Source of the DNA: Candidatus Caldarchaeales archaeon
GTDB taxonomy: Archaea > Thermoproteota > Nitrososphaeria_A > Caldarchaeales > Calditenuaceae
Assembly (NCBI GenBank): GCA_039630085.1
Contig: JBCNVM010000010.1
Span: 17,090-49,089 of the forward strand
Direction of reading: 5' to 3'
DNA: 32,000 nucleotides
In this document: piece after piece, positions 2,160-32,000 of the stretch
How the letters are laid out: the number at the start of each line of letters is the position of its first letter
Numbering within the stretch: position 1 is the stretch's first letter
Made by a program: the position numbers and the translations under genes
Notes under the pieces: generated by a model
The model's input: only the letters and a program-made list of their open reading frames with translations
The model's database searches: none
Told to the model about the DNA's origin: nothing

Positions 2160-2202
2160 GAAACGGACTTAACGGCCCCGACCCCACGACGCCGGGGACG
2201 CC

Positions 2203-11272: not shown

Positions 11273-11276
11273 CCCC

Positions 11277-11292
11277 CTTATTGTGCAATAAG
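11277..11292. promoter_or_regulatory. Perfect 7+7 palindrome (candidate operator) between the TATA box and the rhodanese start
   Basis: CTTATTG-TG-CAATAAG read directly from the sequence. It ends 9 nt before ATG 11301. Confidence 0.4.
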
Positions 11293-11300
11293 CTCGAGAT

Positions 11301-16373: not shown

Positions 16374-16402
16374 CCGCAACCCATAATCCCTCCGGAGACG
16401 CG

Positions 16403-16873: not shown

Positions 16874-16973
16874 TACTGCAGCTCTCCTCATCCCCGCCGG
16901 GAGGGGGCCGGCCCCGCTATTAGGGGTTCCGCGGGCGCACGGTTAATTTCCTCTCCGGAGGGCGGACGCGGGG

Positions 16974-18596: not shown

Positions 18597-18669
18597 CTCA
18601 CCGTTCGGGAATCCGGCCGGGAGCCGCGGGACAAGGGAAATAACTCGGCCCTGCCTTGATCCGGGTGGC

Positions 18670-19209: not shown

Positions 19210-19861
19210 CGGTGACGTTCAGCCTCCGGAGGATCTCCCTGACCAGATCCATCGGCACCGACTCGACCGTCACGGATCCCCTCATCCACGGGTGCGGGAC
19301 GCAATGGTAGGTGTAGACGCCCTCCTTTGCGAAGGAGTAGACGTACCTCTCGCCCTTCCCGAAGAGCCCGGAGTCGAAGAGGCCTCCGTCGTGGGTGACC
19401 GTGTGCGCGACGTCGAGCTCCTCGTCGTTGGTCCAGACCACGGTGTGGTTGACGAAGAGGACGACCCTGATGTCCTTGGGCACGTAGTTCTCCGGCTGCC
19501 TCGGGTCCCAAGATCCGGGGATTATCGAGACGAGGACCTTGATCGGCGACTCGCCGATGGTCGGACCCGCGACGTAGAAAAGCTTGAAGGGTCCATAGCC
19601 GACTACCGCGGCCGTCGAGAGGCCCGCGCTGACCGCGAAGACCGCAAGTCCAATGACCATCGCCTGCTTCACCGTAACGCTCGGAGGCCCTCCCCTCAGG
19701 AGGCCACCGGGGAGCATCAGCACGCCCATCAGGAGGAGGAGCGCCGAGACCGCGTTCATCCCGTGCTCGAAGGTCTTGGAGACGCCGGAGTACGTGAGGA
19801 AGATCCCCGCGGCCCCCGTGACGATCAGCAGCAGCGAGATCCACGTGATCGTCTTGTCCAC
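19199..19861 (-). CDS. Membrane-anchored type-1 blue copper protein (cupredoxin, plastocyanin/sulfocyanin-like)
   Basis: 220 aa. Three N-terminal TM helices, then a cupredoxin domain with ligand pattern AHTVTH...YHCVPHPWMRG (His, Cys, His, Met). GTG start with TTAAATAAT about 25 nt upstream. Confidence 0.8.
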   Translation of the reverse strand: MDKTITWISLLLIVTGAAGIFLTYSGVSKTFEHGMNAVSALLLLMGVLMLPGGLLRGGPPSVTVKQAMVIGLAVFAVSAGLSTAAVVGYGPFKLFYVAGPTIGESPIKVLVSIIPGSWDPRQPENYVPKDIRVVLFVNHTVVWTNDEELDVAHTVTHDGGLFDSGLFGKGERYVYSFAKEGVYTYHCVPHPWMRGSVTVESVPMDLVREILRRLNVTATS

Positions 19862-19935
19862 GTCGAAGGGTGCGCCGAGGCATTATTTAACGGATGACCG
19901 GGCGCTCAGTTCTAGGCGCGGTCTGAGCCGCAGCG

Positions 19936-20382
19936 CTAACGCCTGTCGGGAGTCGGGGACTGCACGGACCTCAGCACGATGCAGGTGTTGGTGCTCCTGA
20001 TCCCCTTGATCCTCCTGATGCTGTCGATGCACCTGTTCAGCGACGCCATGTCCCTCGCGAGGATGATCGCGACCGCGTCGAAGTTCCCGGTCACCTCGTG
20101 GACCTCCAGCACGCCATCGAGCTTCGAGAGGGTCTCCGCGACCGCGGGCGTCGGAGTTCCGGGGTCGACGTTGATCATCGTGATCGCCTTGACCATCGAC
20201 TTGTCGTCGACGATCGCCGTGAACCTCAGGAGGCCCAGCTCCCTCAGCCTCTTCACCCTCTTCCTGACCGCGCCCTCCGACAGCCCGACGAGCTCCCCCA
20301 GCCTCTTGTACGGCATCCTCGCGTCCCTGACGAGGTACTCGACCAGCCTCCTGTCCTTCTCGTCCATCGTCCTGACGGACAT
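19936..20382 (-). CDS. Lrp/AsnC-family transcriptional regulator (HTH + RAM)
   Basis: DEKDRRLVEYLVRDARMPYKRLGELVGLSEGAVRKRVKRLRELGLL (HTH) followed by a RAM domain. Start taken at ATG 20382 from the TATA spacing. 20400 and 20367 are alternatives. Confidence 0.85.
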   Translation of the reverse strand: MSVRTMDEKDRRLVEYLVRDARMPYKRLGELVGLSEGAVRKRVKRLRELGLLRFTAIVDDKSMVKAITMINVDPGTPTPAVAETLSKLDGVLEVHEVTGNFDAVAIILARDMASLNRCIDSIRRIKGIRSTNTCIVLRSVQSPTPDRR

Positions 20383-20409
20383 CGTAATTGCGGTGCACAT
20401 TCTGCACGG

Positions 20410-20428
20410 GGGATAAATATATTTTCAC
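20410..20428 (-). promoter_or_regulatory. AT-rich TATA region for the Lrp gene
   Basis: GGGATAAATATATTTTCAC is the only AT-rich block in the 20401-20566 divergent spacer. Confidence 0.4.
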
Positions 20429-20533
20429 AACAAACCAGAGTTGGGCTGCGCATAGCGGAACCGCTACGTCGAGAACTGGAGCCGGCCCGCCGGGAGTAAA
20501 CGGTCGGGCGGCGGAGCGAGGCGGCTGCACAGG

Positions 20534-20541
20534 ATTAAATA
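20534..20541 (+). promoter_or_regulatory. TATA-like box for the moeB-like gene (apparently leaderless)
   Basis: ATTAAATA is centred about 29 nt upstream of GTG 20567. Confidence 0.45.
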
Positions 20542-20566
20542 CGGAGGGCCTTCGGGGAGCGGCGAG

Positions 20567-21754
20567 GTGGTCGAGCTAGCGTCGATAGAGCCCGTCGTGA
20601 AGGGATGGGAGGAGGTCGCGCTGAGCTTCCCGGAGATCAGGAGGTACGGGAGGCACCTGATCATGCCGGAAGTCGGGATGAAGGGGCAGAGGAAACTGAA
20701 GGCCGCGAGGGTCCTTGTGGTGGGAGCCGGAGGGCTCGGGTCTCCGGTTGCGCTTTACCTCGCGGCCGCGGGCGTCGGGAGGGTCGGGATCGTGGACTTC
20801 GACGCGGTCGACGAGACCAACCTCCAGCGCCAGGTCCTCTTCACCACCGAGGAGGTCGGGAGGCCGAAGGTCGAGGCCGCCAGGGAGAGGCTGGAGAGGC
20901 TCAACCCGTACGTCGAGGTGGTCTCGTATAACTCGACGATCGACTCCTCGAACGCCCTCGAGATCATCAGGGACTACGACGTCGTGGTCGACGCCACCGA
21001 CAACTTCCCGACGAGGTACCTCCTGAACGACGCCTGCGTCTTCCTCGGGAAGCCGCTGGTCTACGGGAGCATCTTCAGGTTCGACGGCCAGGTCTCGGTC
21101 TTCTACGCGGGTAAGGGACCGTGCTACAGGTGCCTCTACCCGGAGCCCCCTCCGCCGGGCCTCGTCCCCTCCTGCGCCGAAGGCGGAGTCCTCGGGGTGC
21201 TTCCGGGGATCATAGGCTCCCTCCAGGCCAACGAGGCCATCAAGCTGATCCTCGGGGTCGGGAGGCCGCTGATAGGGAAGCTCCTGCTGGTAGACGCGCT
21301 CTCGATGACCTTCAGGGAGCTCTCCTTCCAGAGGGACAGGAACTGCCCGGTCTGCGGCGACAACCCGACCATAAGGGAGCTGATCGACTACGAGGCCTTC
21401 TGCGGCGTCAGGGTCACGGGCGAGGAGCTGGTCTCGGGCTTCAGCGTCACGCCGGAACAGCTGAAGGAGATGCTCGAGAGGGGCGAGAGGGTCGAGCTGA
21501 TCGACGTCAGGGAACCCGTGGAGTGGGAGATCTGCCACATCCCGGGCGCGAGGCTGATACCTCTGGGCCAGCTCACCTCGAGGCTCCACGAGATCGACCA
21601 GACCAAAAGGATCGTGGTCTACTGCCACACGGGCCAGAGGAGCGCGCTCGCGGTCAAGCTGCTCAGGGACATCGGGATAGCCCGGGCTTGCAACCTCGCC
21701 GGAGGGATAGACGCCTACGCCGAGAGGATAGACCCCGGCATGCCCAGATACTGA
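20567..21754 (+). CDS. moeB: MoeB/ThiF/UbaA-type E1-like adenylyltransferase with C-terminal rhodanese domain
   Basis: 395 aa. RYGRHLIMPEVGMKGQRKLKAARVLVVGAGGLGSPVALYLAAAGVG (nucleotide-binding fold), two CxxC pairs (CYRC, CPVC), and a C-terminal rhodanese domain with catalytic loop VVYCHTGQRSA. Confidence 0.9.
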   Translation: MVELASIEPVVKGWEEVALSFPEIRRYGRHLIMPEVGMKGQRKLKAARVLVVGAGGLGSPVALYLAAAGVGRVGIVDFDAVDETNLQRQVLFTTEEVGRPKVEAARERLERLNPYVEVVSYNSTIDSSNALEIIRDYDVVVDATDNFPTRYLLNDACVFLGKPLVYGSIFRFDGQVSVFYAGKGPCYRCLYPEPPPPGLVPSCAEGGVLGVLPGIIGSLQANEAIKLILGVGRPLIGKLLLVDALSMTFRELSFQRDRNCPVCGDNPTIRELIDYEAFCGVRVTGEELVSGFSVTPEQLKEMLERGERVELIDVREPVEWEICHIPGARLIPLGQLTSRLHEIDQTKRIVVYCHTGQRSALAVKLLRDIGIARACNLAGGIDAYAERIDPGMPRY

Positions 21755-21851
21755 GCGGATACGATATTCCCGGAGTCTGACCGGCGTATTCCGTGCGCTA
21801 CCTCTTGTACCCGCTACGTCCGCATTTCTAGTAACTCAATCGGGAAAAGAG

Positions 21852-21861
21852 ATAACTATAG
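21852..21861 (+). promoter_or_regulatory. TATA-like box for the surface-protein gene
   Basis: ATAACTATAG is centred about 26 nt upstream of ATG 21882. Confidence 0.45.
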
Positions 21862-21881
21862 GGGCTCCAAACCTCAACGAC

Positions 21882-23573
21882 ATGAAGGGAAGCCTAGTCC
21901 TCCTGCTGGGGACGATGCTGGCGTTGACGGCGCTCGGTGTAGCGCACGCTGAGGTCGTTACGTTCAGGCAGAGCTTCGGCGGATCTGATCCGGAGCTTTT
22001 AGGCGGCATAGCGGTCGACGGGACCTACCTGTACGCTGTGGGGTCGACGCAGAGCTTCGGCCCCAATGCATGGAACTTCTTCCTCTCCGTCTTCAAGCTC
22101 TCAGACAACACATATCATTGCAGTTCAGCGGTCGACATCCAAGGCAGTCCGAGGGACCTCGCGAAGAAGGTCGTCGTCCACGCAGGCCAGGTCTATGTCG
22201 TCGGACAGACGTTCCATGGCATTAACCAACCGAACATCTTCATAGCGAAGATGGACTCTAACTGCAATCTAGCCGGACTGAAGGTCTACGACTTGGGCAC
22301 AGGGGACAGTGTTGAAGGACTGGCGATAAGCGGAGAAGGTAGCTTCATCTACATAGCCGGCGCAACACAGAATGCTGCGCTGCTCATGGCCGTAAGGACG
22401 TCTGACCTCTCCGCGACATGGATCAGGGAGTTCAAGGTTGTCGGGGGAGGAGACTTCGCACAGTCCGTAGCCTTTGATGGAGGAAAGCTGTACGTGACCG
22501 GTCATACTTCTAACGGCGACCTCTTTGTGTCACGCTTCGACATCAACGGCAACCACGAGGCAACTAGGACGTTCGCGACGCCGGACTTCGAAGGGGGGAG
22601 GGACATCGTGATATCAGGAAACAAGATCTACGTCTCAGGGACATATGCGCCCCCCGCTGGAACGAGGATGCTAATCATGAGGCTTGATCCGGGGACCCTC
22701 AACGTCGAGTGGGCTAAAGTGATCGATATGTCGCCGGGCGCGGTAGACACACGATCCGTCTCCGTTGCGGGAGGTCTCGTGTACTCTTTTGGAACAACGA
22801 CACTCTTCGGCACAGATGACGCCCTGATGGTCGCGCTCAAGGCCACCAGCACCGGCGACCTCGCCTTCATGTTTGTTGTCGCGAGGGATGCGTCTATTCA
22901 GAGGGCAATCGATTCGGCACCTTTGGGATCCTGTGTCGTCTTCGGCGGCGACACCAATGGCTGGCCGATTTATTACGCCGTACCGGACTTCACCGTCGGA
23001 TCGATAAGCTTCAGCATTTCGTCCCCGACCCTGTCGATCGCGGCTCCGTCGCCGGGCGACATCGCAGCAACTCCGGCGCTGATGCCGTTCACGCCGACCC
23101 TCAACAACCCGGGGACCGTGGATGCCTTCTACTCGAGGTTCTGTCCGGACGCGCTGACCGTCTCAACCACCGTCACCGTCACTTCTACTTCATCCACGAC
23201 GACGACCCTCTCCACTACCACAACCTCGGTGGTGAAGACGACGACCACCGCCTACGACATCAGGTTGACCACCATCACTCAGACAGAGAGGACGACGCTT
23301 ACCGGGACCACCAGCGTCACGACCACCCTCACGGCCCTTACCACCACGACAAGAACGGAGTCGACGACCCTGACGCTTCAGACCACTCAAACTCTTCAGA
23401 CCACGCAGACTTTCCAGACCACTCAGACGTTTCAGACCACCCAGACCTTCACCACTACTCAGGTCTTCGCGGAGCCGATCACGACATACATCATACCCGC
23501 GCTCCTCGCGGTGATAGCTGCCCTCCTCGGCGCGGCGATCGTGGTGGGCAGGAGGAGACGGTACCCGTTCTGA
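21882..23573 (+). CDS. Secreted/surface protein: signal peptide, SBBP-type beta-propeller repeats, Thr-rich stalk, C-terminal TM anchor
   Basis: 563 aa. N-terminal signal-like MKGSLVLLLGTMLALTALGVAHA. At least six repeats of the type D/G-x-YV-x-G-x-T (LYAVGSTQSFG, VYVVGQTFHG, IYIAGATQN, LYVTGHTSNG, IYVSGTYAP, VYSFGTTTLFG). About 100 aa of T/S-rich sequence. A C-terminal hydrophobic helix plus GRRRRYPF. G+C is noticeably lower than in neighbouring genes. Confidence 0.8.
   Translation: MKGSLVLLLGTMLALTALGVAHAEVVTFRQSFGGSDPELLGGIAVDGTYLYAVGSTQSFGPNAWNFFLSVFKLSDNTYHCSSAVDIQGSPRDLAKKVVVHAGQVYVVGQTFHGINQPNIFIAKMDSNCNLAGLKVYDLGTGDSVEGLAISGEGSFIYIAGATQNAALLMAVRTSDLSATWIREFKVVGGGDFAQSVAFDGGKLYVTGHTSNGDLFVSRFDINGNHEATRTFATPDFEGGRDIVISGNKIYVSGTYAPPAGTRMLIMRLDPGTLNVEWAKVIDMSPGAVDTRSVSVAGGLVYSFGTTTLFGTDDALMVALKATSTGDLAFMFVVARDASIQRAIDSAPLGSCVVFGGDTNGWPIYYAVPDFTVGSISFSISSPTLSIAAPSPGDIAATPALMPFTPTLNNPGTVDAFYSRFCPDALTVSTTVTVTSTSSTTTTLSTTTTSVVKTTTTAYDIRLTTITQTERTTLTGTTSVTTTLTALTTTTRTESTTLTLQTTQTLQTTQTFQTTQTFQTTQTFTTTQVFAEPITTYIIPALLAVIAALLGAAIVVGRRRRYPF
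23376..23465 (+). repeat. Five tandem 18-nt units encoding (L/F)QTTQT inside the surface-protein gene
   Basis: Units: cttcagaccactcaaact / cttcagaccacgcagact / ttccagaccactcagacg / tttcagaccacccagacc / ttcaccactactcaggtc. Differences among the first four units are mostly at third codon positions. Confidence 0.85.
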
Positions 23574-23598
23574 GGCCTACCGCCTAGCCAAGATCTTT

Positions 23599-24282
23599 TC
23601 ACTCTATCAGCGGCAGCACCTCTCCGACCACGTAGTCGAGGAAGTCGGACTCGGAGATCCTGCTGAAGGCGGTCACGACGCAGTTCCTGGTGAGCCCGTA
23701 GATCCTCCCGCCCTCTTTCGTGGCGTAGACGATGTACCAGATCTTCCCGTGCCTGAGGGCCTCGTCGTACATCGAGGTGTCCATCAGCGATGGCCCCGCG
23801 AGGGCCAGCTTGTCGACCCCGGGGTAGTCCACCTGGTCGAACCAGATCAGCCTCGTCGACTCGGGGTTCCGGTTGTGGAGCTCCACCAGCCTCTCGTGGG
23901 GGATCCTCGCCTCGACGATCGACCTGAAGTCGAGGAAGAGGGCGTGACTCAGGGTGGTCGCGACGTAGTTGGCGAAGTGCTTCTCCTGCATCACCACGAG
24001 CAGCAGCTTATCCCCCCTGTCCCTGAACTCTATGTACGCGTCGACCGTCTTCACCACCGGGACCGCCTTCCCCCTCTGCCGGACCCTGATCAGTTTGTCC
24101 CTGCTGAAGACCCCCGAGACCCTGTCCCTCTCGCCCCTGACGTCGTGGACATCCGTCACCAGCTCGACCTCGGTGTCGTCCTCCTTCGCGACCTCGACGC
24201 TCCTGAAGTCCTTCAGCTTCTGGGCTATCGCGCCGAGGCTCGACTTGGCCCTGACGTCAAAAATCTTCGCGGTCAGCACCAT
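23599..24282 (-). CDS. Hypothetical protein (227 aa), no family recognised
   Basis: Clean 227-aa ORF with native codon usage and mixed alpha/beta-like composition. It is the last gene of a same-strand cluster with the carbamoyltransferase (47-nt gap). Confidence 0.65.
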   Translation of the reverse strand: MVLTAKIFDVRAKSSLGAIAQKLKDFRSVEVAKEDDTEVELVTDVHDVRGERDRVSGVFSRDKLIRVRQRGKAVPVVKTVDAYIEFRDRGDKLLLVVMQEKHFANYVATTLSHALFLDFRSIVEARIPHERLVELHNRNPESTRLIWFDQVDYPGVDKLALAGPSLMDTSMYDEALRHGKIWYIVYATKEGGRIYGLTRNCVVTAFSRISESDFLDYVVGEVLPLIE

Positions 24283-24329
24283 TTCACGGGAAGTCCTTCG
24301 GGCCCGGAGATAACGGAATCGCCGGACCC

Positions 24330-25349
24330 TCAGGGCCCGGTGCCGGCGGTCAGGGCGAGGATGGCGGCCCTCACGTAGAGAAGGTTCTCGGCCTGGTCGT
24401 AGATGACGCTCCTGGGGCCGTCCATGACCTCGTCGTCGGCCTCCTGGCCCCTGAAGACCGGGAGGACGTGGGTCACGATGCCGTGCCTGTCCATCAGGTC
24501 GGCGAGCTCCCTCGTCAGCCTCCAGTCTTGGTGCCTCCTGTGGAGCTCCAGCTCCCTCTCCCTCCCGAACCTGTTCAGGCCCTCGAGGACGCAGGCGTGG
24601 CTCGCCCAGCTCCTCGGGAAGACGACGTGGGCCCCCCTCAGCGCCTCCCTGGGGTCGTGGGAGACCTCTAGGGAGCCGTCGGAGTCCCTGGCGTTCTGCT
24701 CCGCGACCCTCACCAGCCTCTCATCGAGGTCGAAGCCGGGCGGGTAGCAGAGGACCACGTCCATCCCGTAGCGGGTCGCGAGGAGCATCTCGTCCTGGAC
24801 GCTCCCCCAGCTCCTTATCCGATCGCTGTAGGCCCACATGATGACGTACCTCTTACCCTCCGGCCTCCAGTTGAACCTCTCCGAGATCGTGTAGAGGTCG
24901 GCGATCGCCTGAGAGGGGTGGAACATGTCGTCGGCCATGTTGACGACCGGAATCCTCGCGTGCTCCGCGTACTCCCTCACCACCGCGTTCCCCCTTCCGT
25001 AGACGTAGTCGACCGCGGACTCCAGTATCCTCACTCCCAGGGCGTGCCCGAACCTCTCGTACATCCTCGCCATGTCCTTGACAGACTCGCCCTCCGCGCC
25101 CCTCGTGGTCGCGAAGTCGATGAACTGCGCGTGCCCTCCCAGCATCGTAGCCGCGGCCTCGAAGCTCGCCCTCGTCCTGGTGGAGGTGTTGTAGAAGATC
25201 ATGAAGAAGGTCCTGTTCTTGAAGAGCTCGGGGACGCTGCCGGCGTACCTCATCACCTTGAGCTGCCTCGCGAGGTCCATGACGGCGCCGATCTCCTCCA
25301 GGGACCAGTCCTGGCTCGAGATCAGGTCCTTGCCCTTGACCTCGATCAT
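24330..25349 (-). CDS. ATCase/OTCase-family carbamoyltransferase, YgeW-like (knotted type)
   Basis: 339 aa with the carbamoyl-phosphate motifs FYNTSTRTRASFE and HPSQAIADL. The second half resembles E. coli YgeW as I remember it (IMWAYSDR...RYGMDVVLCYPPGFDL, FPRSWAS, HQDWRLTRE). It has HVLPV where classical OTCs have HCLP, and no DxxxSMG motif. Confidence 0.8.
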   Translation of the reverse strand: MIEVKGKDLISSQDWSLEEIGAVMDLARQLKVMRYAGSVPELFKNRTFFMIFYNTSTRTRASFEAAATMLGGHAQFIDFATTRGAEGESVKDMARMYERFGHALGVRILESAVDYVYGRGNAVVREYAEHARIPVVNMADDMFHPSQAIADLYTISERFNWRPEGKRYVIMWAYSDRIRSWGSVQDEMLLATRYGMDVVLCYPPGFDLDERLVRVAEQNARDSDGSLEVSHDPREALRGAHVVFPRSWASHACVLEGLNRFGRERELELHRRHQDWRLTRELADLMDRHGIVTHVLPVFRGQEADDEVMDGPRSVIYDQAENLLYVRAAILALTAGTGP

Positions 25350-25391
25350 CAGTGCTCCTTGTCCCGTCCCGCCAATAAACCGTAGCCGGGC

Positions 25392-26837
25392 TCAGTCGGT
25401 CACCAGGACCTTCATCTCCTCCGCGATCCCCAAGAGCGTCCTCCTGACCCTCTCGACGAGGTTGTTGGGCCCCGACGCCGCCCTCCCCACGATCACGAGG
25501 TCCATGTCTCCGTAGACCTCGTCGACCGACTCGACGTCCTGCCATCCCGAGACCTCGGCGACGACCCTCGAGACGTCGGACTGGGGCCTCAGCTTGACCA
25601 TGATGTAGACCTTCTCGATCCCGAAGTAGGCCCTGAGGAGGTCCTCCGGGATCCTGAGCCCGAGCACCGCCTCTAACCCCTCCCTGAGTTCCTGGAACCT
25701 GACCCTCCCTCCGTTGGCGACGTAGTGGGCCGCGACGAACTCCGCCGCCCTCCTGGCGGCCTCCTCGTCGAGCGAGGCGTTCAGCTTGGACGCGATGTCG
25801 AGGAAGACCTTGTGGCTGATGTACGGCGTCGGGGCGAGGGCGACCCCGTCGAAGTCGAACCTCAGCTTCCCAACGGGGACGTAACCGTCAGGCCTCCTGA
25901 TGACCATCGACTGGTGGACTCCGGCCCTGACCGTCCTCGACTCGGGGGCGAGCGGGTGCCTCCAGTATTGCCTGATCCCCGTGACCCTCGAGAACTCCGC
26001 GTAGGCCCAGGCCAGCCTCTCCCTCCTCACGCCGAGGTCGACGCCGTGGACGTCGTGGAGCGTCGCGACCACCTCGTAGAGGTCCGCGATCCCGTTCCTG
26101 TCGCCGATGCCGAAGAGCGTGACGTGGGCCTCCTCCGCCCCCTCCAGCACAGCGGTCACCGTGTTGGCCGAGGCCATTCCGTAGTCGTTGTGGAAGTGGC
26201 AGGCGATCGGAAGGGCCGACCTCTCCCTGCAGTACCTGACGAAGGAGGCCGCGAGGAGTGGAGTCATGAGGCCGCTGGTGTCGGGGAGGCTGACCATCGT
26301 GGCTCCCGCGCTCCGGAGGTCCTTCGTGAAGTCCAGCAGCCTGTCCAGCTCCCTGAACTGTCCCTCGACGAAGAGCCTCGAGACGTCCTCTAGCGTCGCC
26401 CTCACGTAGCCGTACCCCTGGGACCTGCAGAGCTCCGCCGCCTCGAGGAGCCTCGCCATCACCTCCTCCTCCGACATCCCCTTCAGCTTGTGCTCCCTGT
26501 GGACCCTCGAGACCGCGACGTAGAACGCGACGCCGTCGACGTCGTACTTCGTGAAGGCCTCGATGTCCGCCCTGTAGGCCCTTCCGTGCATCACCACCTC
26601 GACTCCCCTGTCCCTCAGGAGCTCGACGACCGGCCTTACGTCGGCCTCCGTCGTCTTCGGCGGGTAGTCGACGGTCACCTCGACCCTCCTCAGCCCCAGC
26701 TCCGCGAGGATCTCCGCGACCTTCAGCTTCCTCTCCGGGGTCAGGAACTTGAAGAGCTCGCCCTCCCTCAGCGTCGAGTCGAGCAGCGTCGGCAAGCCCC
26801 GCACCTTTGGCGGCTCGTGTATTAGCCGACAAATCAA
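25392..26837 (-). CDS. Homocitrate/2-isopropylmalate synthase-family (DRE-TIM metallolyase) protein with C-terminal RAM-like domain
   Basis: 481 aa. LLDSTLREGE and HFHNDYGMASANTV metal-binding motifs. The C-terminal ~75 aa (VYIMVKLRPQSDVSRVVAEVSGWQDVESVDEVYGDMDLVIVGRA) resemble an Lrp/AsnC RAM domain. TTG start per the track; GTG 26804 (VRGLPTLL) is an alternative. Confidence 0.85.
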   Translation of the reverse strand: MICRLIHEPPKVRGLPTLLDSTLREGELFKFLTPERKLKVAEILAELGLRRVEVTVDYPPKTTEADVRPVVELLRDRGVEVVMHGRAYRADIEAFTKYDVDGVAFYVAVSRVHREHKLKGMSEEEVMARLLEAAELCRSQGYGYVRATLEDVSRLFVEGQFRELDRLLDFTKDLRSAGATMVSLPDTSGLMTPLLAASFVRYCRERSALPIACHFHNDYGMASANTVTAVLEGAEEAHVTLFGIGDRNGIADLYEVVATLHDVHGVDLGVRRERLAWAYAEFSRVTGIRQYWRHPLAPESRTVRAGVHQSMVIRRPDGYVPVGKLRFDFDGVALAPTPYISHKVFLDIASKLNASLDEEAARRAAEFVAAHYVANGGRVRFQELREGLEAVLGLRIPEDLLRAYFGIEKVYIMVKLRPQSDVSRVVAEVSGWQDVESVDEVYGDMDLVIVGRAASGPNNLVERVRRTLLGIAEEMKVLVTD

Positions 26838-26967
26838 TCTATGTTAAGACACACGTCGAACGTGCAGAGTCCGCATGGGAGCCGACGGGGCGCGATCACC
26901 CAAATATACCGGCCGGGGATGGTAGTGCGCGAAGGGCCCGTAACCGAGGTCATGGGCCAAGGGAAAT

Positions 26968-26979
26968 CAAATAAAAATA
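26968..26979 (+). promoter_or_regulatory. TATA box for the tRNA gene
   Basis: AAATAAAAATAC is centred about 29 nt upstream of tRNA position 1 (27003). Confidence 0.5.
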
Positions 26980-27002
26980 CCGGGAAGGCATGGATGGATG
27001 TA

Positions 27003-27091
27003 GGGCCTGAAGCTCTGCCAGGAAGAGCGCCCGGCCACATGGGGTGAGGCTCTTAACCGGGAGGTCCCGGGTTCAAATCCCGGCAGGCCCG
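27003..27091 (+). tRNA. tRNA-Lys: tRNA-Lys(CUU) with a 15-nt intron in the anticodon arm (non-canonical position)
   Basis: Hand-folded. Acceptor GGGCCTG/CAGGCCC, D arm GCTC-TGCCAGGAA-GAGC, anticodon stem CCCGG/CCGGG, variable AGGTC, T arm CCGGG-TTCAAAT-CCCGG, discriminator G, no encoded CCA. There are 22 nt between the anticodon stem halves. Removing CCACATGGGGTGAGG (27035-27049, or the equivalent 27036-27050) leaves the loop CTCTTAA, i.e. U33-CUU-A37. Confidence 0.8.
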
Positions 27092-27117
27092 CATTCCTGA
27101 CAATTCAAGATCAGGGA

Positions 27118-29121
27118 CTAGTAAACAATAATTATGGACAATCGGGAGTCGGAAAAATTCGAGGGGGGAGAGTCCGTCCTCTGAGTTCGTCTCGATTCCT
27201 CCGTTCTCATCACCTTATCCCTAAGCTTCGCAAGCTTGCGCGGTATCACGAAGCCGACTTTGGCCGCAAACGCCCGTAGCGAGGAGTATCGAATTCGAAT
27301 GCGGTAAAGGTCCTTCTTCGATATCGCTGGGTGGTCCGAGATCATCTTGACGTCGCCACCACGTCTGTGTAGATGTGGTCCAGTAGTTTCGATCTTTAAC
27401 GCACTTAGCTGCTCCTGCACGAATGTAAGGATCCGGACATCAGTGTTGTAGGCCTCTACTCCCACGCTAGAGGCGCACCCCTCCGCGTCGAAGAACCCGC
27501 GGAGGAATGCTGCCCGGCAGGCGTCGTTGAATTCAACGAATGGTCTGATTTTCTCGATCTGCCTTCTAGCTACCAGCTCGTAGAGAACTCTACTGCGCAC
27601 CTGTGCCCTATACATAACAGTTCCATTCCTCATGACCTTCTCAACTGCGGGCGCCGGTCGGCGCAAAACCATTTCTACACAGCGAGAGAATTCTTCAACA
27701 AATTCGCGATCCTTAGCGACAAGCACCAGAACGTACAGACCGTCCGCAGTCCTATACGTGTAGCCGTCGCCCATCATCACCCCGATGATATACGCGAGCT
27801 CCGGGGACGGCTCAAGTAGAACGATAGAGTCTTCTCTCCTCTCGCTTTCATTCTCCGTGTTTCTTTCAGGTTTCCTTCCAGGTTTTCTTAGACCTCTCGG
27901 CAAAGTTTCGCCCCGAAGCCATCTGTCGATAGTCGACGGGTGGAATCTCAGACCGTCCTTTGCGAGCTCCTTGGTGATCCGTCGATATCCGAGCCCCATC
28001 CGGTTGAGTTCACGCACTCGTTTCAGGATCTCATTCTGCCGCTCTGGTGTTTCTCCCAGCATATGTTTTAACCATTTTATTAAGCTGTTTTCATGGACAT
28101 GAATGCCCTCCCTTCGGAGTTCTGCGCGGATTCTATAGTACGGCAGCCCTTGCCGTCGTAGCTCAGCTGCACGATTCAGAACCCTTTCTCTGAGCTCTAT
28201 GCTGTCCTTGATGTGTTTCCACGTGTATATAGGAGGTTTAAAGACCATATCGCCGAGTATGTCGTAATCCCTGAACCAGCTCTCAAGTGTCCTTTCTGCT
28301 ATGTAGATCTTTTCCTCTTCTAACTTCCTCACGATCTCGCTCAGACTGAGTCCCTGTTGTCTGTACTCCAGTGCTTTTCTTAGGATAATGTCTTTGTATG
28401 TGCGCCACATCCAGACGTACCTGTAAATGATCTCTTTAGCCTCTCTAGGTTTCACGTGTTCCGCGTTAGTGTGCTCAGGTGTCGCACTCTCGGACGGTGT
28501 CGTCGCGACGATTTCTGCCATCTCAGCCTGATCAGGAGCAGAACTCTCGGGAGGTTCCTCGGCGATCTCGACGATTTCAGCATGTTCAGACGCTGTGATA
28601 TCGGGTGGCTTAGTGACGATTTTCGTAGTTTCGCCAGCAGCAGGAGTGACCACGATACTGCTTGTCGATCGGGCCCTTGGCACCGTGACAGGGGCGGGCA
28701 GATCTCTAGGCTTGTGGTGTCCCTTGATCCAGCCCCACAGTGTTCCCCGAGGCAGTTTTATGTTAAACTTTCTCCAAATTTCGGCGATAATTTGCCGATA
28801 CGTCGCCCCATCGTCACGTAGTCGTAGGACTTCATAATAGATCTGGCACCAGAGATCCGGAGATGAGCGTGGGAATCTCGCGCCAAAGTGCTTCCGTACC
28901 CAGTTATATATACTCGGATACGGCAGATCAATCCCCTCCTTCAAAAGTGTCCGACGAATTTCAGCAGGCCTGTGTCCAGCCGCTGCAAGAGTCAGGACTC
29001 GTTGTTTAAGGGTCGCAGGATATGGTATTCTTCTCCCCCCTTTCGTGGAATTTCGTCGGCTCTCGTCTACCGAAAAAGGAGACGAGACCGCTGAGTCTGG
29101 ACCCACCAAGCCGTCCGACAT
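27118..29121 (-). CDS. Multi-HTH (five tandem modules) / LAGLIDADG double-motif endonuclease fusion protein
   Basis: 667 aa. Five ~45-aa repeats of the pattern L..L...G.s..eI...L...GI.v...ti..W(l/v)(r/k), at about aa 36-79, 92-136, 243-285, 306-354 and 361-404. An acidic/Pro-rich repeat linker spans aa ~150-225. The C-terminal domain has LAYIIGVMMGDGY and AAFLRGFFDAEGC (LAGLIDADG motifs 1 and 2). GGAGGTGA lies 7 nt upstream of ATG 29121. Confidence 0.85.
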   Translation of the reverse strand: MSDGLVGPDSAVSSPFSVDESRRNSTKGGRRIPYPATLKQRVLTLAAAGHRPAEIRRTLLKEGIDLPYPSIYNWVRKHFGARFPRSSPDLWCQIYYEVLRLRDDGATYRQIIAEIWRKFNIKLPRGTLWGWIKGHHKPRDLPAPVTVPRARSTSSIVVTPAAGETTKIVTKPPDITASEHAEIVEIAEEPPESSAPDQAEMAEIVATTPSESATPEHTNAEHVKPREAKEIIYRYVWMWRTYKDIILRKALEYRQQGLSLSEIVRKLEEEKIYIAERTLESWFRDYDILGDMVFKPPIYTWKHIKDSIELRERVLNRAAELRRQGLPYYRIRAELRREGIHVHENSLIKWLKHMLGETPERQNEILKRVRELNRMGLGYRRITKELAKDGLRFHPSTIDRWLRGETLPRGLRKPGRKPERNTENESERREDSIVLLEPSPELAYIIGVMMGDGYTYRTADGLYVLVLVAKDREFVEEFSRCVEMVLRRPAPAVEKVMRNGTVMYRAQVRSRVLYELVARRQIEKIRPFVEFNDACRAAFLRGFFDAEGCASSVGVEAYNTDVRILTFVQEQLSALKIETTGPHLHRRGGDVKMISDHPAISKKDLYRIRIRYSSLRAFAAKVGFVIPRKLAKLRDKVMRTEESRRTQRTDSPPSNFSDSRLSIIIVY

Positions 29122-29220
29122 CTCCTTCTCACCTCCCGGGGGGCCCGAACCTCCCTTCCCCGAGCAGGAGGAAACCCTCCCGCTAGGAGAAGAGCAGGAG
29201 GGTCCCCCTCTCGGGGGTTA

Positions 29221-29232
29221 CATAAAAAGAGG
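29221..29232 (-). promoter_or_regulatory. TATA-like box upstream of the HTH-LAGLIDADG gene
   Basis: The minus strand reads CCTCTTTTTATG, about 100 nt upstream of ATG 29121. It is followed by a CCCCC-GAGA-GGGGG hairpin and the SD GGAGGTGA. Confidence 0.35.
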
Positions 29233-29277
29233 AGGTTGGGTTTGGGGAGGTGACAGAAATCGTCGTTGGCGTTGAGG

Positions 29278-29451
29278 TCAGATGTTATCGAAGTGCCGGC
29301 GAAGACGCTTCTCGATCTCCTTGGCCCGCACCCAGACGGTCATCCCGACGGCGTCGGTCTCCTCGACCACCCTGAAGCAGGTGACCGGAAGACCGTAGAG
29401 AGCGCCTATCAGGTAGGCCGTCTGGGGCGGGCACTTCTCCCTAGGGTTCAT
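29278..29451 (-). CDS. Small hypothetical protein (57 aa)
   Basis: Hand translation: MNPREKCPPQTAYLIGALYGLPVTCFRVVEETDAVGMTVWVRAKEIEKRLRRHFDNI*. Its ATG lies 10 nt after the stop of the upstream membrane-protein gene and is preceded by GAGGAG. It competes with the + strand track ORF 29266..29469, which looks less protein-like. Confidence 0.45.
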   Translation of the reverse strand: MNPREKCPPQTAYLIGALYGLPVTCFRVVEETDAVGMTVWVRAKEIEKRLRRHFDNI

Positions 29452-29461
29452 GCTCCTCGGT

Positions 29462-29722
29462 TTAGATGAAGCTGATGATCAGCGGCAGCACTAGGTTGGC
29501 GAAGACCAGCGCTATTAGGCCCCCCGCCACCAGCCTCCAGCCAAGGAACTCCTGGCGGAAGCCGACGGCGATAAGGAGCCCCAGCGCGATCATCGCGACG
29601 CTCAGCACGTTGACGATCGGCACAGAAGCCTCTAAGATCGACAGTGTGATCTCCCTAACCATCTGCGAAATCTGCTGACCGACCTCTCGCGCAGTTATCA
29701 GAGCGATCAAATACGCGAACAT
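29462..29722 (-). CDS. Small membrane protein (86 aa, 2-3 TM), hypothetical
   Basis: From ATG 29722: MFAYLIALITAREVGQQISQMVREITLSILEASVPIVNVLSVAMIALGLLIAVGFRQEFLGWRLVAGGLIALVFANLVLPLIISFI. GGAGGTGA lies 7 nt upstream. The Arg/Gly-rich 32 aa upstream in the track ORF are unlikely to be coding. Confidence 0.6.
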   Translation of the reverse strand: MFAYLIALITAREVGQQISQMVREITLSILEASVPIVNVLSVAMIALGLLIAVGFRQEFLGWRLVAGGLIALVFANLVLPLIISFI

Positions 29723-29831
29723 GGCCCTCTCACCTCCACCCCTCGCGTCAACCCGTCCGAGCCGCCTCAGCGGGACTCCCGCCGTGGCTGGGCGGGGTTG
29801 CCCTCGGCGGCCCTTCATCCGGGTTTAAGCT

Positions 29832-29857
29832 CCGGGGCATGGGAAATGGTGCCCCGG
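29832..29857 (-). terminator. GC-rich hairpin downstream of the PriL-CTD-like gene, preceded by a T5 run on the minus strand
   Basis: CCGGGGCA-10 nt-TGCCCCGG, a perfect 8-bp stem. On the minus strand TTTTT (29874-29878) lies about 36 nt after the stop at 29915. The function (terminator or processing site) is unproven. Confidence 0.3.
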
Positions 29858-29914
29858 CCCCTGTTTAATGGGGAAAAATTTTGAGGGGTGGAGGTTCGGG
29901 GCCGTCAGGAAACG

Positions 29915-30370
29915 TCAGGATTTCCGCGATTCCTTCTCCTTCCTCGATGCGTACTGCATCGGGTTCTTTATGTTGACAGGACACAGCCTGCCGTTCTCGA
30001 CGCAGAGTCCGTGCGTTCTCATCGTCTGACACGAAGGCACGGTGTACTTCGTCCTCGATCCTCTGAGCCCTGCAATATGTTCTACCTGATACCTCGCGAC
30101 CCTCTCGTCGAAGTCCGGCCTCTGCGCGTAGAGTCCGATCACCTCGTCAACCGTGTGACCGGCGTTCAGCAGGTATGCCGCGACCCATCTGGTGTCCTCA
30201 GGAGCGCGTTCGTCTATCACGCGCTCGTATTTCCACCTGTAGAGCGTCTCGAGCTCTGGACGTTCTCGGCGGATGGCGTCCTCCAAAATCGGATAGGACC
30301 TCTTGACGACATCGACGACGTAGGCCAGGACTTCCGCGTCGGTCTCAGGTTCAAACTCAGGGGATCCCAC
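29915..30370 (-). CDS. Stand-alone DNA primase large subunit (PriL/p58) C-terminal Fe-S-domain-like protein
   Basis: 151 aa. AAYLLNAGHTVDEVIGLYAQRPDFDERVARYQVEHIAGLRGSRTKYTVPSCQTMRTHGLCVENGRLCPVNIKNPMQY closely resembles the conserved PriL-CTD block, for example human PRIM2 [21 protein letters not shown]...GCPFRH as I recall it. There is no PriL N-terminal domain. GTG start with GGTGA 6 nt upstream. Confidence 0.65.
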   Translation of the reverse strand: MGSPEFEPETDAEVLAYVVDVVKRSYPILEDAIRRERPELETLYRWKYERVIDERAPEDTRWVAAYLLNAGHTVDEVIGLYAQRPDFDERVARYQVEHIAGLRGSRTKYTVPSCQTMRTHGLCVENGRLCPVNIKNPMQYASRKEKESRKS

Positions 30371-30404
30371 ACCACATCACCACACCATAGTGAGTTATGG
30401 CCTA

Positions 30405-30414
30405 CTATAAAAAG
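30405..30414 (-). promoter_or_regulatory. TATA box (CTTTTTATAG on the minus strand) for the PriL-CTD-like operon
   Basis: Forward sequence is CTATAAAAAG. It lies about 40 nt upstream of GTG 30370 in a 98-nt AT-rich divergent spacer. Confidence 0.45.
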
Positions 30415-30438
30415 CTACGGCCACTTGTAGCTCAAATG

Positions 30439-30447
30439 TAATTATAT
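30439..30447 (+). promoter_or_regulatory. TATA box for the RHH gene pair
   Basis: TAATTATAT is centred about 26 nt upstream of ATG 30469, a leaderless-type spacing. Confidence 0.45.
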
Positions 30448-30468
30448 CACACATTCGGGGGTATTGTG

Positions 30469-30636
30469 ATGAGCGAGCAGAGGTTAAGAAAGACCACGAT
30501 CGAGATCTCCGTCAAGACCAAGGAGCGCCTCCTGCGGCTCAAAATTCATCCACGGGAGACATACGATGATGTCATAAATCGCTTGATTGAAGCCTTCGAA
30601 CGGAGTCGCAAATCTCCGCCGGCGAAATCAGCATGA
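30469..30636 (+). CDS. Ribbon-helix-helix / VapB-like antitoxin-type small protein (55 aa)
   Basis: Hand translation: MSEQRLRKTTIEISVKTKERLLRLKIHPRETYDDVINRLIEAFERSRKSPPAKSA*. The pattern (TI.IS..T.ERL..LK...ESY.DVI..LIE) is typical of small archaeal antitoxin-like proteins. Too short for the ORF track. Confidence 0.6.
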   Translation: MSEQRLRKTTIEISVKTKERLLRLKIHPRETYDDVINRLIEAFERSRKSPPAKSA

Positions 30637-30878
30637 AGGCGGAGGTATCACGTCTCCGCCGGCCTCCCGGGCGCGGTGTGCCGATCGCGAGCATAGGGAC
30701 CAAGACCATGCTGAGGAACGATCTTCGGAGCTGGGAAGAATATGAGAAGAGGGAAATGTCGGCTCATTTGCCACTCTCCGGGGCGCTTCGCGACTTCTTG
30801 GAAAACGCTGTCAGGTACGCAACAGGCTGGAGAAGATCGCTAGGAGGCATATCAGTCGGTGCGCTCTTAACAGCTTAA
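30633..30878 (+). CDS. Hypothetical protein (81 aa), possibly RHH-like
   Basis: Its ATG overlaps the upstream stop (ATGA). The segment TKTMLRNDLRSWEEYEKREMSAHLPLSGALRDFLENAV could form strand-helix-helix. It is not PIN-like. Confidence 0.4.
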   Translation: MKAEVSRLRRPPGRGVPIASIGTKTMLRNDLRSWEEYEKREMSAHLPLSGALRDFLENAVRYATGWRRSLGGISVGALLTA

Positions 30879-30901
30879 GAATGCAGAGGTTCATTCCGTT
30901 A

Positions 30902-31153
30902 CTATGTGGCCTGAGACCAGACGCGATCGAACTCCGGCCTATACTGTGAGGCTAGGCGCTCGCCGATGAGCACGATGTTCTCGTCGTTCCTGTCCTCCGC
31001 GGAGACCGAGAAATTATAGCTACCCGTTATAACCAGCCGGCCGTCTATGACAACGAACTTGTGGTGCATGAGGTCGGAGTCGCCGTCGAGAGCCTCGGCA
31101 TGAACGCGAATATCGGCCCCGGATGAAAAGCGTGTCGTCCCTCTGTATCGTCG
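30902..31153 (-). pseudogene. PLD/Nuc-family HKD nuclease, C-terminal remnant
   Basis: Hand translation directly after the CopG-like stop, same frame: RRYRGTTRFSSGADIRVHAEALDGDSDLMHHKFVVIDGRLVITGSYNFSVSAEDRNDENIVLIGERLASQYRPEFDRVWSQAT*. It contains the HxK(x4)D...GS.N motif and an NDEN block. The only ATG (31069) would give 55 aa starting at the catalytic His. The N-terminal half of the fold is missing. Confidence 0.6.
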
Positions 31154-31408
31154 TCACGGAATTGCCACTGCACGGATTTGAACTGAACGAAGCGGGGATC
31201 TCAGGTTACGTCGTCGGGGCATTCCATTCACGTTCTCGGGGGATATCCGTTCATTAAGCCCGAACATCGCCTCCGCCTTGATGAAGTCCCTGACAGCCAT
31301 CCTGATAGCCTCGGATCTGTTCATATAGCGTCCGGCCTCGACCAGAGAGTCGATCGCCTCGAGATATGCATCAGGCATGTGAACGGCAACCACCCGCACC
31401 GTTATCAC
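31154..31408 (-). CDS. CopG/NikR-type ribbon-helix-helix protein with a non-RHH tail
   Basis: 84 aa, GTG start. VRVVAVHMPDAYLEAIDSLVEAGRYMNRSEAIRMAVRDFI is a canonical RHH. The last ~38 aa are Arg-rich and run into the HKD remnant across a TGA. Confidence 0.75.
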   Translation of the reverse strand: MITVRVVAVHMPDAYLEAIDSLVEAGRYMNRSEAIRMAVRDFIKAEAMFGLNERISPENVNGMPRRRNLRSPLRSVQIRAVAIP

Positions 31409-31550
31409 CTCGGAGGGTTCTGGAAGGGTGAATTAGATAAACATCCTGAGGGTCGGCTTGAATATGATGGGCGGGTTTGCATTTGATCTAGACATCTAAT
31501 CCCTTTCGTGAGGGATTGTATTTAAGCTCAGTTAAACCCCCTCAATACGT

Positions 31551-31667
31551 CTAAAAAAGAAGTATCTTCTCACTGAAGGGCGGGGAAGAGGCGAGGCTGA
31601 TGAAGACTAAAGCCGCGAGCGCGACCGAGGACGCAGTGCCCAGCGACTGCCTCCAGTTCAAGGCCAT
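31551..31667 (-). CDS. 38-aa single-TM ORF overlapping the nuoJ-like stop (possible truncated second half of NuoJ)
   Basis: TGATG overlap. MALNWRQSLGTASSVALAALVFISLASSPPFSEKILLF* ends in an AT-rich tail exactly at the island edge. Confidence 0.3.
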   Translation of the reverse strand: MALNWRQSLGTASSVALAALVFISLASSPPFSEKILLF

Positions 31668-31927
31668 CACACCGTCTCGTCCTTCCTCCTGGTGAACATG
31701 AGCACGACCATCAGCAGGGCCACAGCTCCCCCGGAGTAGGCGAGTATCTGGAAGAGCCCGACGAGGTGGGCGCCCATGACTACGAAGAGCAGTCCCAGTG
31801 AGGCCGTGAAGACGAGAAACCAGAGCGCGGTCCTGACGAGGCTTCTGGTCTCGATGGACATGATCGCCGAGAGCGTCGCGAGCAGCAGAAGGGCGGCCTC
31901 GAGCAGTCCCGCGTCCATCGGGGACAC
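31667..31927 (-). CDS. nuoJ: NADH-quinone oxidoreductase subunit J-like protein (N-terminal three TM helices only)
   Basis: 86 aa. RTALWFLVFTASLGLLFVVMGAHLVGLFQILAYSGGAVALLMVVLMF matches the conserved NuoJ/ND6 TM2-TM3 block (..A.FlA..QilVYaGAi.vL..F). Confidence 0.65.
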   Translation of the reverse strand: MSPMDAGLLEAALLLLATLSAIMSIETRSLVRTALWFLVFTASLGLLFVVMGAHLVGLFQILAYSGGAVALLMVVLMFTRRKDETV

Positions 31928-32000
31928 TCACCCCCAGCCACAATTTTAGGTCTCCCGGCGAGCCTCGTTAGCCAAACCAATAAGGCCCCGGGAAGCCCTG

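Follow-up and report, generated by a model that had tools for sequence, protein, structure and literature searches.

By what means did a stretch of DNA with a low G+C content (GC) come to lie directly beside a lysine tRNA gene of an archaeal chromosome, and where does it begin and end? This question is raised by a 32,000-nucleotide (nt) stretch of contig JBCNVM010000010.1, from the metagenome-assembled genome (MAG) of a Candidatus Caldarchaeales archaeon. We call the whole of this stretch the window, number its positions from its first letter, and refer to its DNA outside the low-GC island as the core. The initial annotation of the window described a single acquired and decayed island behind an intact tRNA-Lys gene, and guessed that an endonuclease might have driven its movement. 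We give a probability of roughly 60% to a modified explanation, in which a putative endonuclease-driven, tRNA-targeting unit displaced the resident tRNA-Lys(CUU) gene, and the rest of the island is scrap within a patchwork rearrangement scar. The unit would correspond to the left 2.2-2.9 kb, with a promoter leader, an intron-bearing tRNA-Lys(CUU) gene, a convergent endonuclease gene and probably a gene for a small membrane protein.

A search with the HMGL-like gene beside the tRNA assigned the window to the Calditenuaceae (Caldarchaeales, 'Aigarchaeota'). The tRNA-Lys loci of two relatives (L001 and L002), including fetched 10-kb flanks, were compared with the window. The closest genome locus, L001, is collinear with window positions 15385-26942 at 90% nucleotide identity, and L002 is collinear with the window at 78-84%. 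Both relatives carry a complete tRNA-Lys(CUU) gene right behind the HMGL gene. This is a different gene from the tRNA gene of the window, with an intron of about 30 nt in the variable region and other stem sequences. What is left of it in the window is the conserved promoter box AAATATA (26902-26908) and tRNA nucleotides 1-9, GGGCCCGTA (26934-26942); homology with the relatives ends after 26942. A leader follows, in which an A/T-rich TATA-like box can be read at 26964-26979, 24-39 nt before the new tRNA gene. The box may act as a promoter, and an analogous leader with a TATA-like box occurs in a metagenome locus described below (L068). The new tRNA gene is complete. Once its 15-nt noncanonical intron (27035-27049) is removed, the anticodon loop reads CTCTTAA and the spliced RNA is predicted to fold as a perfect cloverleaf (-39 kcal/mol), which supports the tRNA-Lys identity assigned previously. 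Outside the introns, identity between this tRNA and the tRNA-Lys(CUU) of the relatives is about 81-90%, and the intron position differs.

Because homology stops, a separate leader follows, and the complete tRNA is divergent, we infer that this tRNA belongs to the incoming DNA and that the resident gene was destroyed. The earlier picture of an island inserted behind an intact host tRNA, with the change in composition one base after the tRNA 3' end, is replaced by one in which the host tRNA-Lys(CUU) is a 9-nt stub and the start of the foreign DNA is near 26943, upstream of the present, incoming tRNA. The more general proposal of acquired DNA at a tRNA-Lys locus is upheld, and the comparison with relatives that had been suggested as a check for an empty locus revealed two loci, L001 and L002, that have a tRNA-Lys(CUU) gene without the endonuclease gene. 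None of the island genes was found in the fetched 10-kb flanks of these relatives, and the 10 kb downstream of the relatives' tRNA matches nothing in the window at the DNA or protein level.

Several side observations concern the tRNA genes. The incoming tRNA has A8 and T14 at positions where U8 and A14 are nearly universal, which resembles a swapped tertiary pair, and its Rfam score is 47.6 bits compared with about 62 for the relatives' tRNAs. Its T arm is closer to that of the relatives' tRNA-Lys(UUU) than to that of the resident CUU gene; the UUU gene (666-759 in L001 and 579-663 in L002) is on the strand opposite to that of tRNA-Lys(CUU), some 9 kb away from it. ARAGORN called the incoming gene a Val(CAC) tRNA, and this call was rejected as an artefact of the noncanonical intron. 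The program misassigns or misses many tRNAs with noncanonical introns in TACK archaea (Thaumarchaeota, Aigarchaeota, Crenarchaeota and Korarchaeota); for example, it reads the window's Lys as Val and that of L002 as Pro, and it called one soil tRNA type both Gly and Cys. Because of these misassignments, the anticodon labels in the survey reported below are approximate.

Composition sets the island apart from the core. Computed over the window, GC is 0.548 at 26946-31550 and 0.656 at 1-26940, and the strand-symmetric tetranucleotide distance to the core profile peaks in the island at z = 7.5. Core genes have a GC at third codon positions (GC3) of 0.94-0.95, encode Lys with AAG in 100% of cases, and encode Arg nearly always with AGG. 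In the 667-amino-acid (aa) endonuclease gene, GC3 is 0.56, the AAA/AAG ratio is 17/20, and Arg is encoded mainly by CGN or AGA, and the remaining open reading frames (ORFs) of the island have GC3 values of 0.61-0.84. These statistics confirm the low-GC island and the shift from AGG-type to AAA-type codons that had been noticed by eye, as well as its mosaic structure, with a low-GC block (0.519 at 27092-29121), a GC-rich block (0.617 at 29122-29900) and an intermediate one (0.546 at 29900-31550). Low GC is by itself not diagnostic of acquisition in this genome, because a native patch at 21.5-23.75 kb (GC 0.588, z 3.9), which is collinear with L001 at about 90% nucleotide identity, is low in GC too. 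Another low-GC patch is located at 10750-11750 (GC 0.584). From alignment and composition, the island is to all appearances foreign DNA from about 26943 to about 31573.

The gene that faces the incoming tRNA converges on it, with a gap of 26 nt, and its 667-aa product is identical to NCBI protein MEN3048311.1. The C-terminal part (residues ~440-640) contains a double-motif LAGLIDADG domain like that of I-DmoI, which is also the best sequence match in PDB (1e-5), with the GDG of motif 1 and the AEG of motif 2 aligned; the segments LAYIIGVMMGDG and AFLRGFFDAEG are those that align with the I-DmoI motifs. The catalytic D and E are invariant in alignments of 26 and of 36 family members. An AlphaFold2 model built from 36 homologues has a pLDDT of 89.2 and contains the pseudo-dimeric alpha-beta-beta-alpha-beta-beta-alpha fold. 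In a Foldseek search with this model, I-DmoI was the best match (E 6e-10, target-normalised TM 0.71), and the top 32 PDB matches were all I-DmoI chains (TM 0.64-0.75). Within the N-terminal 430 residues, the family hidden Markov model (HMM) recognizes five helix-turn-helix (HTH) modules, of which family members carry one or two. Transposase profiles gave only subthreshold matches in this HTH region (IS481, IS3, IS66 and IS6, with 23-31 bits against cut-offs of 125-224) and no catalytic domain. By sequence and predicted fold, then, the protein is a putative I-DmoI-type LAGLIDADG endonuclease. The guess of an endonuclease-driven mechanism agrees with the presence, next to the tRNA, of an intact LAGLIDADG gene whose family is tightly linked to tRNA genes elsewhere.

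This family is large. An exhaustive HMMER search yielded 1,189 representatives at E <= 1e-3, typically 270-450 aa in length, from Caldarchaeales, Nitrososphaerota, Geothermarchaeota and Bathyarchaeia, and their source annotations read only 'LAGLIDADG family homing endonuclease' or 'intein-encoded DNA endonuclease-like protein'. A full-text literature search turned up no account of a link between LAGLIDADG genes and archaeal tRNA genes. Four members have accessions of the MAG studied here (MEN3048071, MEN3048311, MEN3048394 and MEN3048615), and one of the other three shares the N-terminus of the window protein. The distribution is that of selfish DNA: it is patchy and multicopy, with decaying copies such as the frameshifted one in L082, and family genes are usually lower in GC than their contigs.

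Linkage to tRNA genes was assessed in 80 metagenome loci with a family alignment, in which tRNAs were predicted by ARAGORN. A convergent tRNA gene, on the opposite strand and no more than 320 nt from the end of the endonuclease gene, is present at 34 of the 80 loci, in the same geometry as in the window. On the strictest count, the number is 26 among the 67 loci with 150 nt or more beyond the stop codon; about 0.4 loci would be expected from tRNA density, and the binomial P value is ~1e-56 for 34/67. Rfam models added a decayed tRNA in L082, a tRNA and a signal recognition particle (SRP) RNA in L091, and the 3' end of a 16S rRNA in L029; the tRNA matches in L082 and L091 are at or near the threshold. 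The adjoining tRNAs represent a dozen or more isoacceptors. Members of one tight clade, with 75-92% DNA identity over ~1.0-1.3 kb, abut tRNA-Met, Glu(CTC), Glu(TTC), Gly(TCC), Val and Pro, and several of its copies at different tRNAs occur in the same metagenome. The conserved end of this clade's unit is a C-rich tract with an A/T hairpin, ~0-4 nt from the tRNA 3' end; the hairpin is clear in L062 (z -5.4). Because near-identical copies abut six different tRNAs, the association is not frozen synteny. The unit in the window belongs to a large chromosomal family of TACK archaea that sits directly 3' of tRNA genes.

The association may extend to other stable-RNA genes. In L029 (1673-4269), the endonuclease gene ends ~120 nt from the convergent 16S rRNA 3' end, and the 16S rRNA gene includes ~775 nt that the Rfam model does not have. 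In L091 (745-2216), a convergent tRNA comes next after the endonuclease gene, and the SRP RNA gene lies behind that tRNA.

Footprints of insertion are preserved in several other loci. In L068, the 5' part of an old tRNA-Val, up to nucleotide 41, is followed by a 41-nt leader with its TATA-like box, a complete tRNA-Val whose acceptor stem differs from the old one, and the endonuclease gene, which is the layout of the window. L074 and L080 each contain the two parts of an old tRNA-Ala(CGC), broken at 43/44, with the endonuclease gene and an entire tRNA-Ala(CGC) between them; this inner tRNA is on the other strand and has an 18-nt intron in the anticodon loop. In L035, a complete tRNA-Met and the endonuclease gene are followed by the 3' part of a second tRNA-Met, from nucleotide 44, which is 1.77 kb away in direct orientation. 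The T stem of this second part differs by paired changes, and it therefore came from another lineage. The tRNA-flanked units in L035, L074 and L080 measure 1.3-1.8 kb and have the endonuclease gene as their sole recognizable gene, and insertion occurs in either orientation (compare L074 with L068). Three independent breaks fall near nucleotides 41-44, which suggests a cut site there, and insertion of endonuclease-only units of 1.3-1.8 kb in either orientation argues against a tyrosine recombinase.

These footprints suggest how such a unit could move. The endonuclease would bind the DNA of tRNA genes, with its HTH modules possibly reading the conserved boxes, and its LAGLIDADG core would cut near nucleotides 41-44, probably close to the junction of anticodon stem and variable loop. 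One broken end could then invade a unit-bearing donor through tRNA homology and copy the 3' part of the donor tRNA together with the unit. Where no second homology is available, the other end would be joined without homology, so that a tRNA part is displaced, as in L035, a stub remains, as in L068 and the window, or the insert is inverted, as in L074. The expected outcome would be tRNA stubs, a replacement tRNA possibly with a new intron, and sometimes rearrangements. Introns in the incoming copies (in the window, in L074 and in a Caldiarchaeum case discussed below) may break the recognition site. In the window, misrepair of breaks might have produced the fusion to nuoJ2, described below, and the scrap DNA at ~29.9-31.57 kb.

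An alternative, which we consider very unlikely, would make the protein a domesticated regulator resembling WhiA that is kept near tRNA genes, and the island ordinary strain-variable DNA. WhiA combines HTH and LAGLIDADG domains as well and is among the fold matches, five HTH modules are unusual for a nuclease, and a tight linkage to tRNAs could in principle be functional. Nevertheless, WhiA has lost the LAGLIDADG catalytic acids and is a single-copy conserved bacterial gene, with its HTH domain at the C-terminus, whereas the protein in the window has the HTH modules at the N-terminus and retains both acids, which are invariant across its family. The family genes are multicopy, patchy and usually of low GC, and some are frameshifted (L082); near-identical copies lie at different tRNAs, flanked by fragments of old tRNAs; and the two relatives have the tRNA without the gene.

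Conventional mobility features were sought throughout the island. No integrase or recombinase domain exceeded the threshold in island ORFs in Pfam, PHROGs, NCBIfam or PADLOC, and six-frame comparisons found no fragment of one. The corresponding search for transposases found no domain above threshold in the island ORFs, its weak HTH-type matches being confined to the 667-aa protein. Searches of both strands of 27092-32000 with blastn-short and with a T-loop-plus-acceptor pattern detected no sequence repeated from the new tRNA or from the old one; two inverted matches, at 31080-31096 and at 31168-31183, were rejected as remnants of attachment (att) sites, as they are not collinear. Among direct and inverted repeats in 26900-32000, only chance-level 8-16-mers, short and imperfect, were found. 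The lack of a tyrosine recombinase, a transposase and att repeats reported in the initial annotation is in agreement with these searches. A plasmid, phage or virus origin was also rejected: nucleotide and protein searches of plasmid and phage collections and of IMG/VR, for island and family alike, gave nothing but one weak viral match.

A decayed element of the SSV or pNOB8 type, integrated in tRNA-Lys and later deprived of its integrase and attR, with the endonuclease gene as a mere passenger, is in our judgment unlikely. The tRNA location, the foreign composition, and the gene fragments and small ribbon-helix-helix (RHH) genes are all typical of such elements, and a similar locus in Caldiarchaeum was read in this way by Sugahara et al. 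2012 (PMC3293823). In addition, the priL-like fragment and the membrane-protein gene of the island each recur once beside an endonuclease gene, so a larger common element is possible. Weighing against this explanation are the failure to find an integrase domain or fragment or an att-like repeat, and the absence of the family from viral and plasmid collections. The host tRNA was also replaced whole by a copy with a leader of its own, rather than being rebuilt with a 5' part supplied by the host and a 3' part by the element; the units in L035, L074 and L080 are small, with the endonuclease gene as their sole recognizable gene; and near-identical endonuclease genes at six tRNAs are unlike the behavior of one att-specific integrase.

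The right border of the island is inside a gene. In relatives (L110-L115), an operon consists of nuoJ1 (83 aa), nuoJ2 (88 aa) and nuoK (103-104 aa), followed by thiS. In the window, nuoJ1 is the first gene of a second core block, and nuoJ2 retains native codons 1-29/30; homology ends at ~31573 and is followed by seven foreign codons and a stop. The remaining ~58 codons of nuoJ2 and the whole of nuoK are absent from the window as judged by blastn and tblastn. The return to intact core sequence that had been placed at about 31550 is therefore an end at about 31573 inside a truncated nuoJ2, with nuoK lost. Because the left border cuts a tRNA-Lys gene and the right border cuts nuoJ2, the 4.6 kb between them join two truncated core loci. 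The related assembly JANXEE01 has the corresponding two loci, tRNA-Lys and nuo, on separate contigs. The 4.6-kb bridge is either a rearrangement scar or, less likely, a misjoin in the MAG, and the view of these 4.6 kb as one element is untenable, given that they join two core loci and include 3' fragments of two genes, priL and one for a PLD-family nuclease. If the contig is correct, the J/K module of complex I is broken at this locus, barring a second copy.

The possibility of a chimeric MAG contig, in which foreign DNA or DNA from another locus has been joined to two unrelated core regions, is one that we regard as quite unlikely. It would explain why both borders are inside genes (the tRNA-Lys stub and codon 30 of nuoJ2), why the two core blocks are on different JANXEE01 contigs, and why an essential-looking complex I operon is left broken. 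Moreover, family loci are often at contig ends, as assembly-prone repeated DNA would be, and no independent assembly with the island ORFs was found; exact-protein look-up returned none for these ORFs or the paralogues, and one 1.4-kb Logan contig for the core OTCase. However, no shared repeat that would mislead an assembler was seen at either join, both flanks belong to one lineage and show similar divergence from JANXEE01, three further paralogues have accessions of the same MAG, so the family appears to be resident, and the layout of a stub and a complete tRNA recurs in independent metagenome contigs. Among the survey loci L030-L108, many contigs start or stop inside or beside the endonuclease gene, an observation consistent with multicopy DNA breaking assemblies.

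Displacement of the resident tRNA by an endonuclease-bearing unit, which we continue to prefer, has several observations to contend with. The stub in the window ends at nucleotide 9, not at 41-44, and the target site was derived from three breakpoints that are all in other loci. The 3' part of the old tRNA was not found in the window. The A/T hairpin was rejected as a unit-end feature of the window, since it is insignificant there (z -1.25), as it is in L035. No adjacent tRNA is seen in about half of the loci of the family, one tight clade among them. Finally, both junctions rest on one MAG contig. All of these points weigh against the proposed displacement.

The free-standing gene in the window can be compared with several known systems. 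I-DmoI, an archaeal monomeric enzyme encoded in an rRNA intron, has the same two-lobed double-motif fold and aligned GDG and AEG acids. Unlike I-DmoI, the gene in the window is chromosomal and outside any intron or intein, its family has one to five N-terminal HTH modules, and the family is linked to tRNA genes of many specificities instead of a single rRNA site. Free-standing endonuclease genes are also known from T-even phages, with SegB of the T4 tRNA cluster as an example; they lie beside conserved genes and spread by double-strand-break repair with co-conversion of flanking DNA, including tRNA genes. SegB-type enzymes are GIY-YIG proteins of phage genomes that move between co-infecting phages, whereas the genes described here encode HTH-LAGLIDADG proteins in archaeal chromosomes and occur at a dozen or more tRNAs, with stubs and replacement copies. 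Elements of the SSV and pNOB8 types likewise target tRNAs and are foreign in composition, and partial duplicates of the tRNA mark their borders, like the direct repeat in L035; they differ from the present units in having a tyrosine recombinase, and the present units are distinguished by sizes of 1.3-1.8 kb, insertion in either orientation and, in the window, replacement of a whole tRNA.

The closest parallel is an insertion at tRNA-Thr(GGU) of Caldiarchaeum subterraneum, where the 5' fragment of a tRNA is next to a full copy whose intron pattern differs (PMC3293823). That insertion has deviant composition and, next to the tRNA, an 813-bp ORF with seven paralogues in the genome, and tRNA fragments were scattered by later recombination (PMC3293823). 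Sugahara et al. 2012 called the ORF a 'putative DNA recombinase' by support vector machine prediction and invoked pNOB8-like integration; LAGLIDADG is never mentioned (PMC3293823). The host is also a member of the Caldarchaeales (Aigarchaeota), and the window has the corresponding features, namely a 9-nt stub, a differing intron and deviant composition. The Caldiarchaeum ORF is on the tRNA's own strand, between fragment and tRNA, whereas the gene in the window is convergent and beyond the tRNA. Compared by its description only, this ORF 'b' (~270 aa) fits the family in length and copy number and differs in strand relation.

The reasons for the frequent interruption, fragmentation and splitting of archaeal tRNA genes have been under debate ever since the discovery of split tRNAs. 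The usual suspects are integrase-bearing viruses and plasmids, and introns are seen as protection against them. The window and ~36 related metagenome loci point to another agent, a small chromosomal endonuclease gene that occurs at many tRNA types, leaves tRNA stubs and is accompanied by tRNA copies with unusual introns; a single protein and several tRNA genes as substrates would be enough to test the link. As a tentative generalization, to which we give somewhat less than even odds, HTH-LAGLIDADG units may be widespread, unrecognized mobile elements of archaea that target tRNA (and occasionally other stable-RNA) genes, read tRNA-gene boxes with their HTH modules, cut near nucleotides 41-44 and protect the incoming copy by introns; they might then be a major cause of the oddities of TACK tRNA genes, such as noncanonical introns, fragments, split genes and rearrangements. 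The same agent may re-explain the Caldiarchaeum case that was attributed to a 'recombinase'. For annotation, a tRNA beside such a gene may be an import and not the ancestral copy, and these units mark likely points of rearrangement or misassembly in MAGs, which is a warning for claims of contiguity.

Features of the island and its borders are collected in Table 1.

Table 1. Positions of the island features and the bordering core genes in the window
Feature	Position	Strand	Basis or remarks
Remnant of the resident tRNA-Lys(CUU) gene	26902..26942	+	Alignment with L001 and L002
Leader of the putative incoming unit	26943..27002	+	60 nt; no counterpart in L001 or L002
Putative replacement tRNA-Lys(CUU) gene	27003-27091	+	Rfam tRNA match, 47.6 bits; spliced cloverleaf
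Putative homing-endonuclease gene, 667 aa, intact ORF	27118..29121	-	GC 0.52; Pfam LAGLIDADG_3, 6e-13
57-aa ORF in the GC-richer segment	29278..29451	-	No family match
Small membrane protein, 86 aa	29462..29722	-	Start at 29722; no Pfam family above threshold
151-aa ORF with PriL C-terminus	29915..30370	-	NCBIfam PriL, also Pfam
RHH/DUF7557 (VapB-like) gene, 56 aa	30466-30636	+	Pfam DUF7557, 5e-11
81-aa orphan, overlapping the 56-aa RHH gene	30633-30878	+	No match in any library
3' fragment of a PLD-family (Nuc/DrmC-like) nuclease gene	30902..31150	-	Pfam PLDc_2 positions 81-132 of 132; PADLOC DrmC partial matches
CopG-type RHH protein, 84 aa	31154..31408	-	Pfam RHH_1, 2.5e-8; NCBIfam
Truncated nuoJ2	31551..31667	-	blastn and tblastn of the relatives' genes against the window
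nuoJ1, first gene of the second core block	31667..31927	-	Pfam Oxidored_q3; 94% and 87% identity to NuoJ of related MAGs

Two of the island genes have counterparts beside other family members. A homologue of the membrane protein (53% identical; tblastx and phmmer, E 7e-23) is directly upstream of the family endonuclease gene in L041. The membrane protein was nonetheless rejected as a regular operon partner of the endonuclease, as an iterated HMM search confirmed the L041 homologue only and the weaker tblastx matches failed. In the 151-aa ORF, residues 63-149 correspond to PriL positions 264-346 of 348 (E 1.4e-31, far under the full-length cut-off), and the N-terminus is unrelated to PriL; the ORF is most likely a gene fragment. 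A homologue of this fragment (62% identical) is ~0.5 kb upstream of the family endonuclease gene in L082. Because the membrane protein and the PriL fragment each recur once beside relatives of the endonuclease gene, the DNA up to ~30370 may have traveled with that gene.

The L041 locus has an arrangement of its own. At 1499-4722, a 380-aa ORF stops at the point where the iron-sulfur domain of PriL would be expected to start; behind this ORF come the membrane-protein homologue and then the endonuclease gene, and no C-terminal part of PriL was seen in the 14.7-kb locus. It may represent a priL gene interrupted by such a unit, or a plasmid-like element.

Shine-Dalgarno motifs of the form GGAGGTGA precede the starts at 29121 and 29722, as previously noted; their proposed association with the island amounts to a mild enrichment only, with three of the six copies in the window inside it. 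A 19-nt repeat (29118-29136 and 29719-29737) spans the start codon and GGAGGTGA of the endonuclease and membrane-protein genes. The GC-richer segment is flanked by a 22-nt imperfect direct repeat (73%; 27151-27172 and 29872-29893) and a 21-nt inverted repeat (81%; 29134-29154 and 29890-29910). These repeats, together with the one at the start sites, could be unit borders or could be due to chance. The 57-aa ORF in the same segment was rejected as a relic of a second endonuclease gene, as its LAGLIDADG-like motif is insignificant (family HMM, E 5.7).

Several genes in the right part of the island are fragments, and this part is therefore regarded as scrap with no working module. Together with the mosaic composition, these fragments agree with the decayed character initially ascribed to the island. 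The 81-aa ORF that overlaps the small RHH gene has no PIN or other toxin match in Pfam, PHROGs, NCBIfam or PADLOC, so the two do not qualify as a toxin-antitoxin pair. The PLD fragment keeps its HKD motif and is missing the N-terminal half. It is in one frame with the CopG-like RHH ORF, from which it is separated by a single stop codon (31151-31153); this arrangement could reflect a former fusion or a deletion join.

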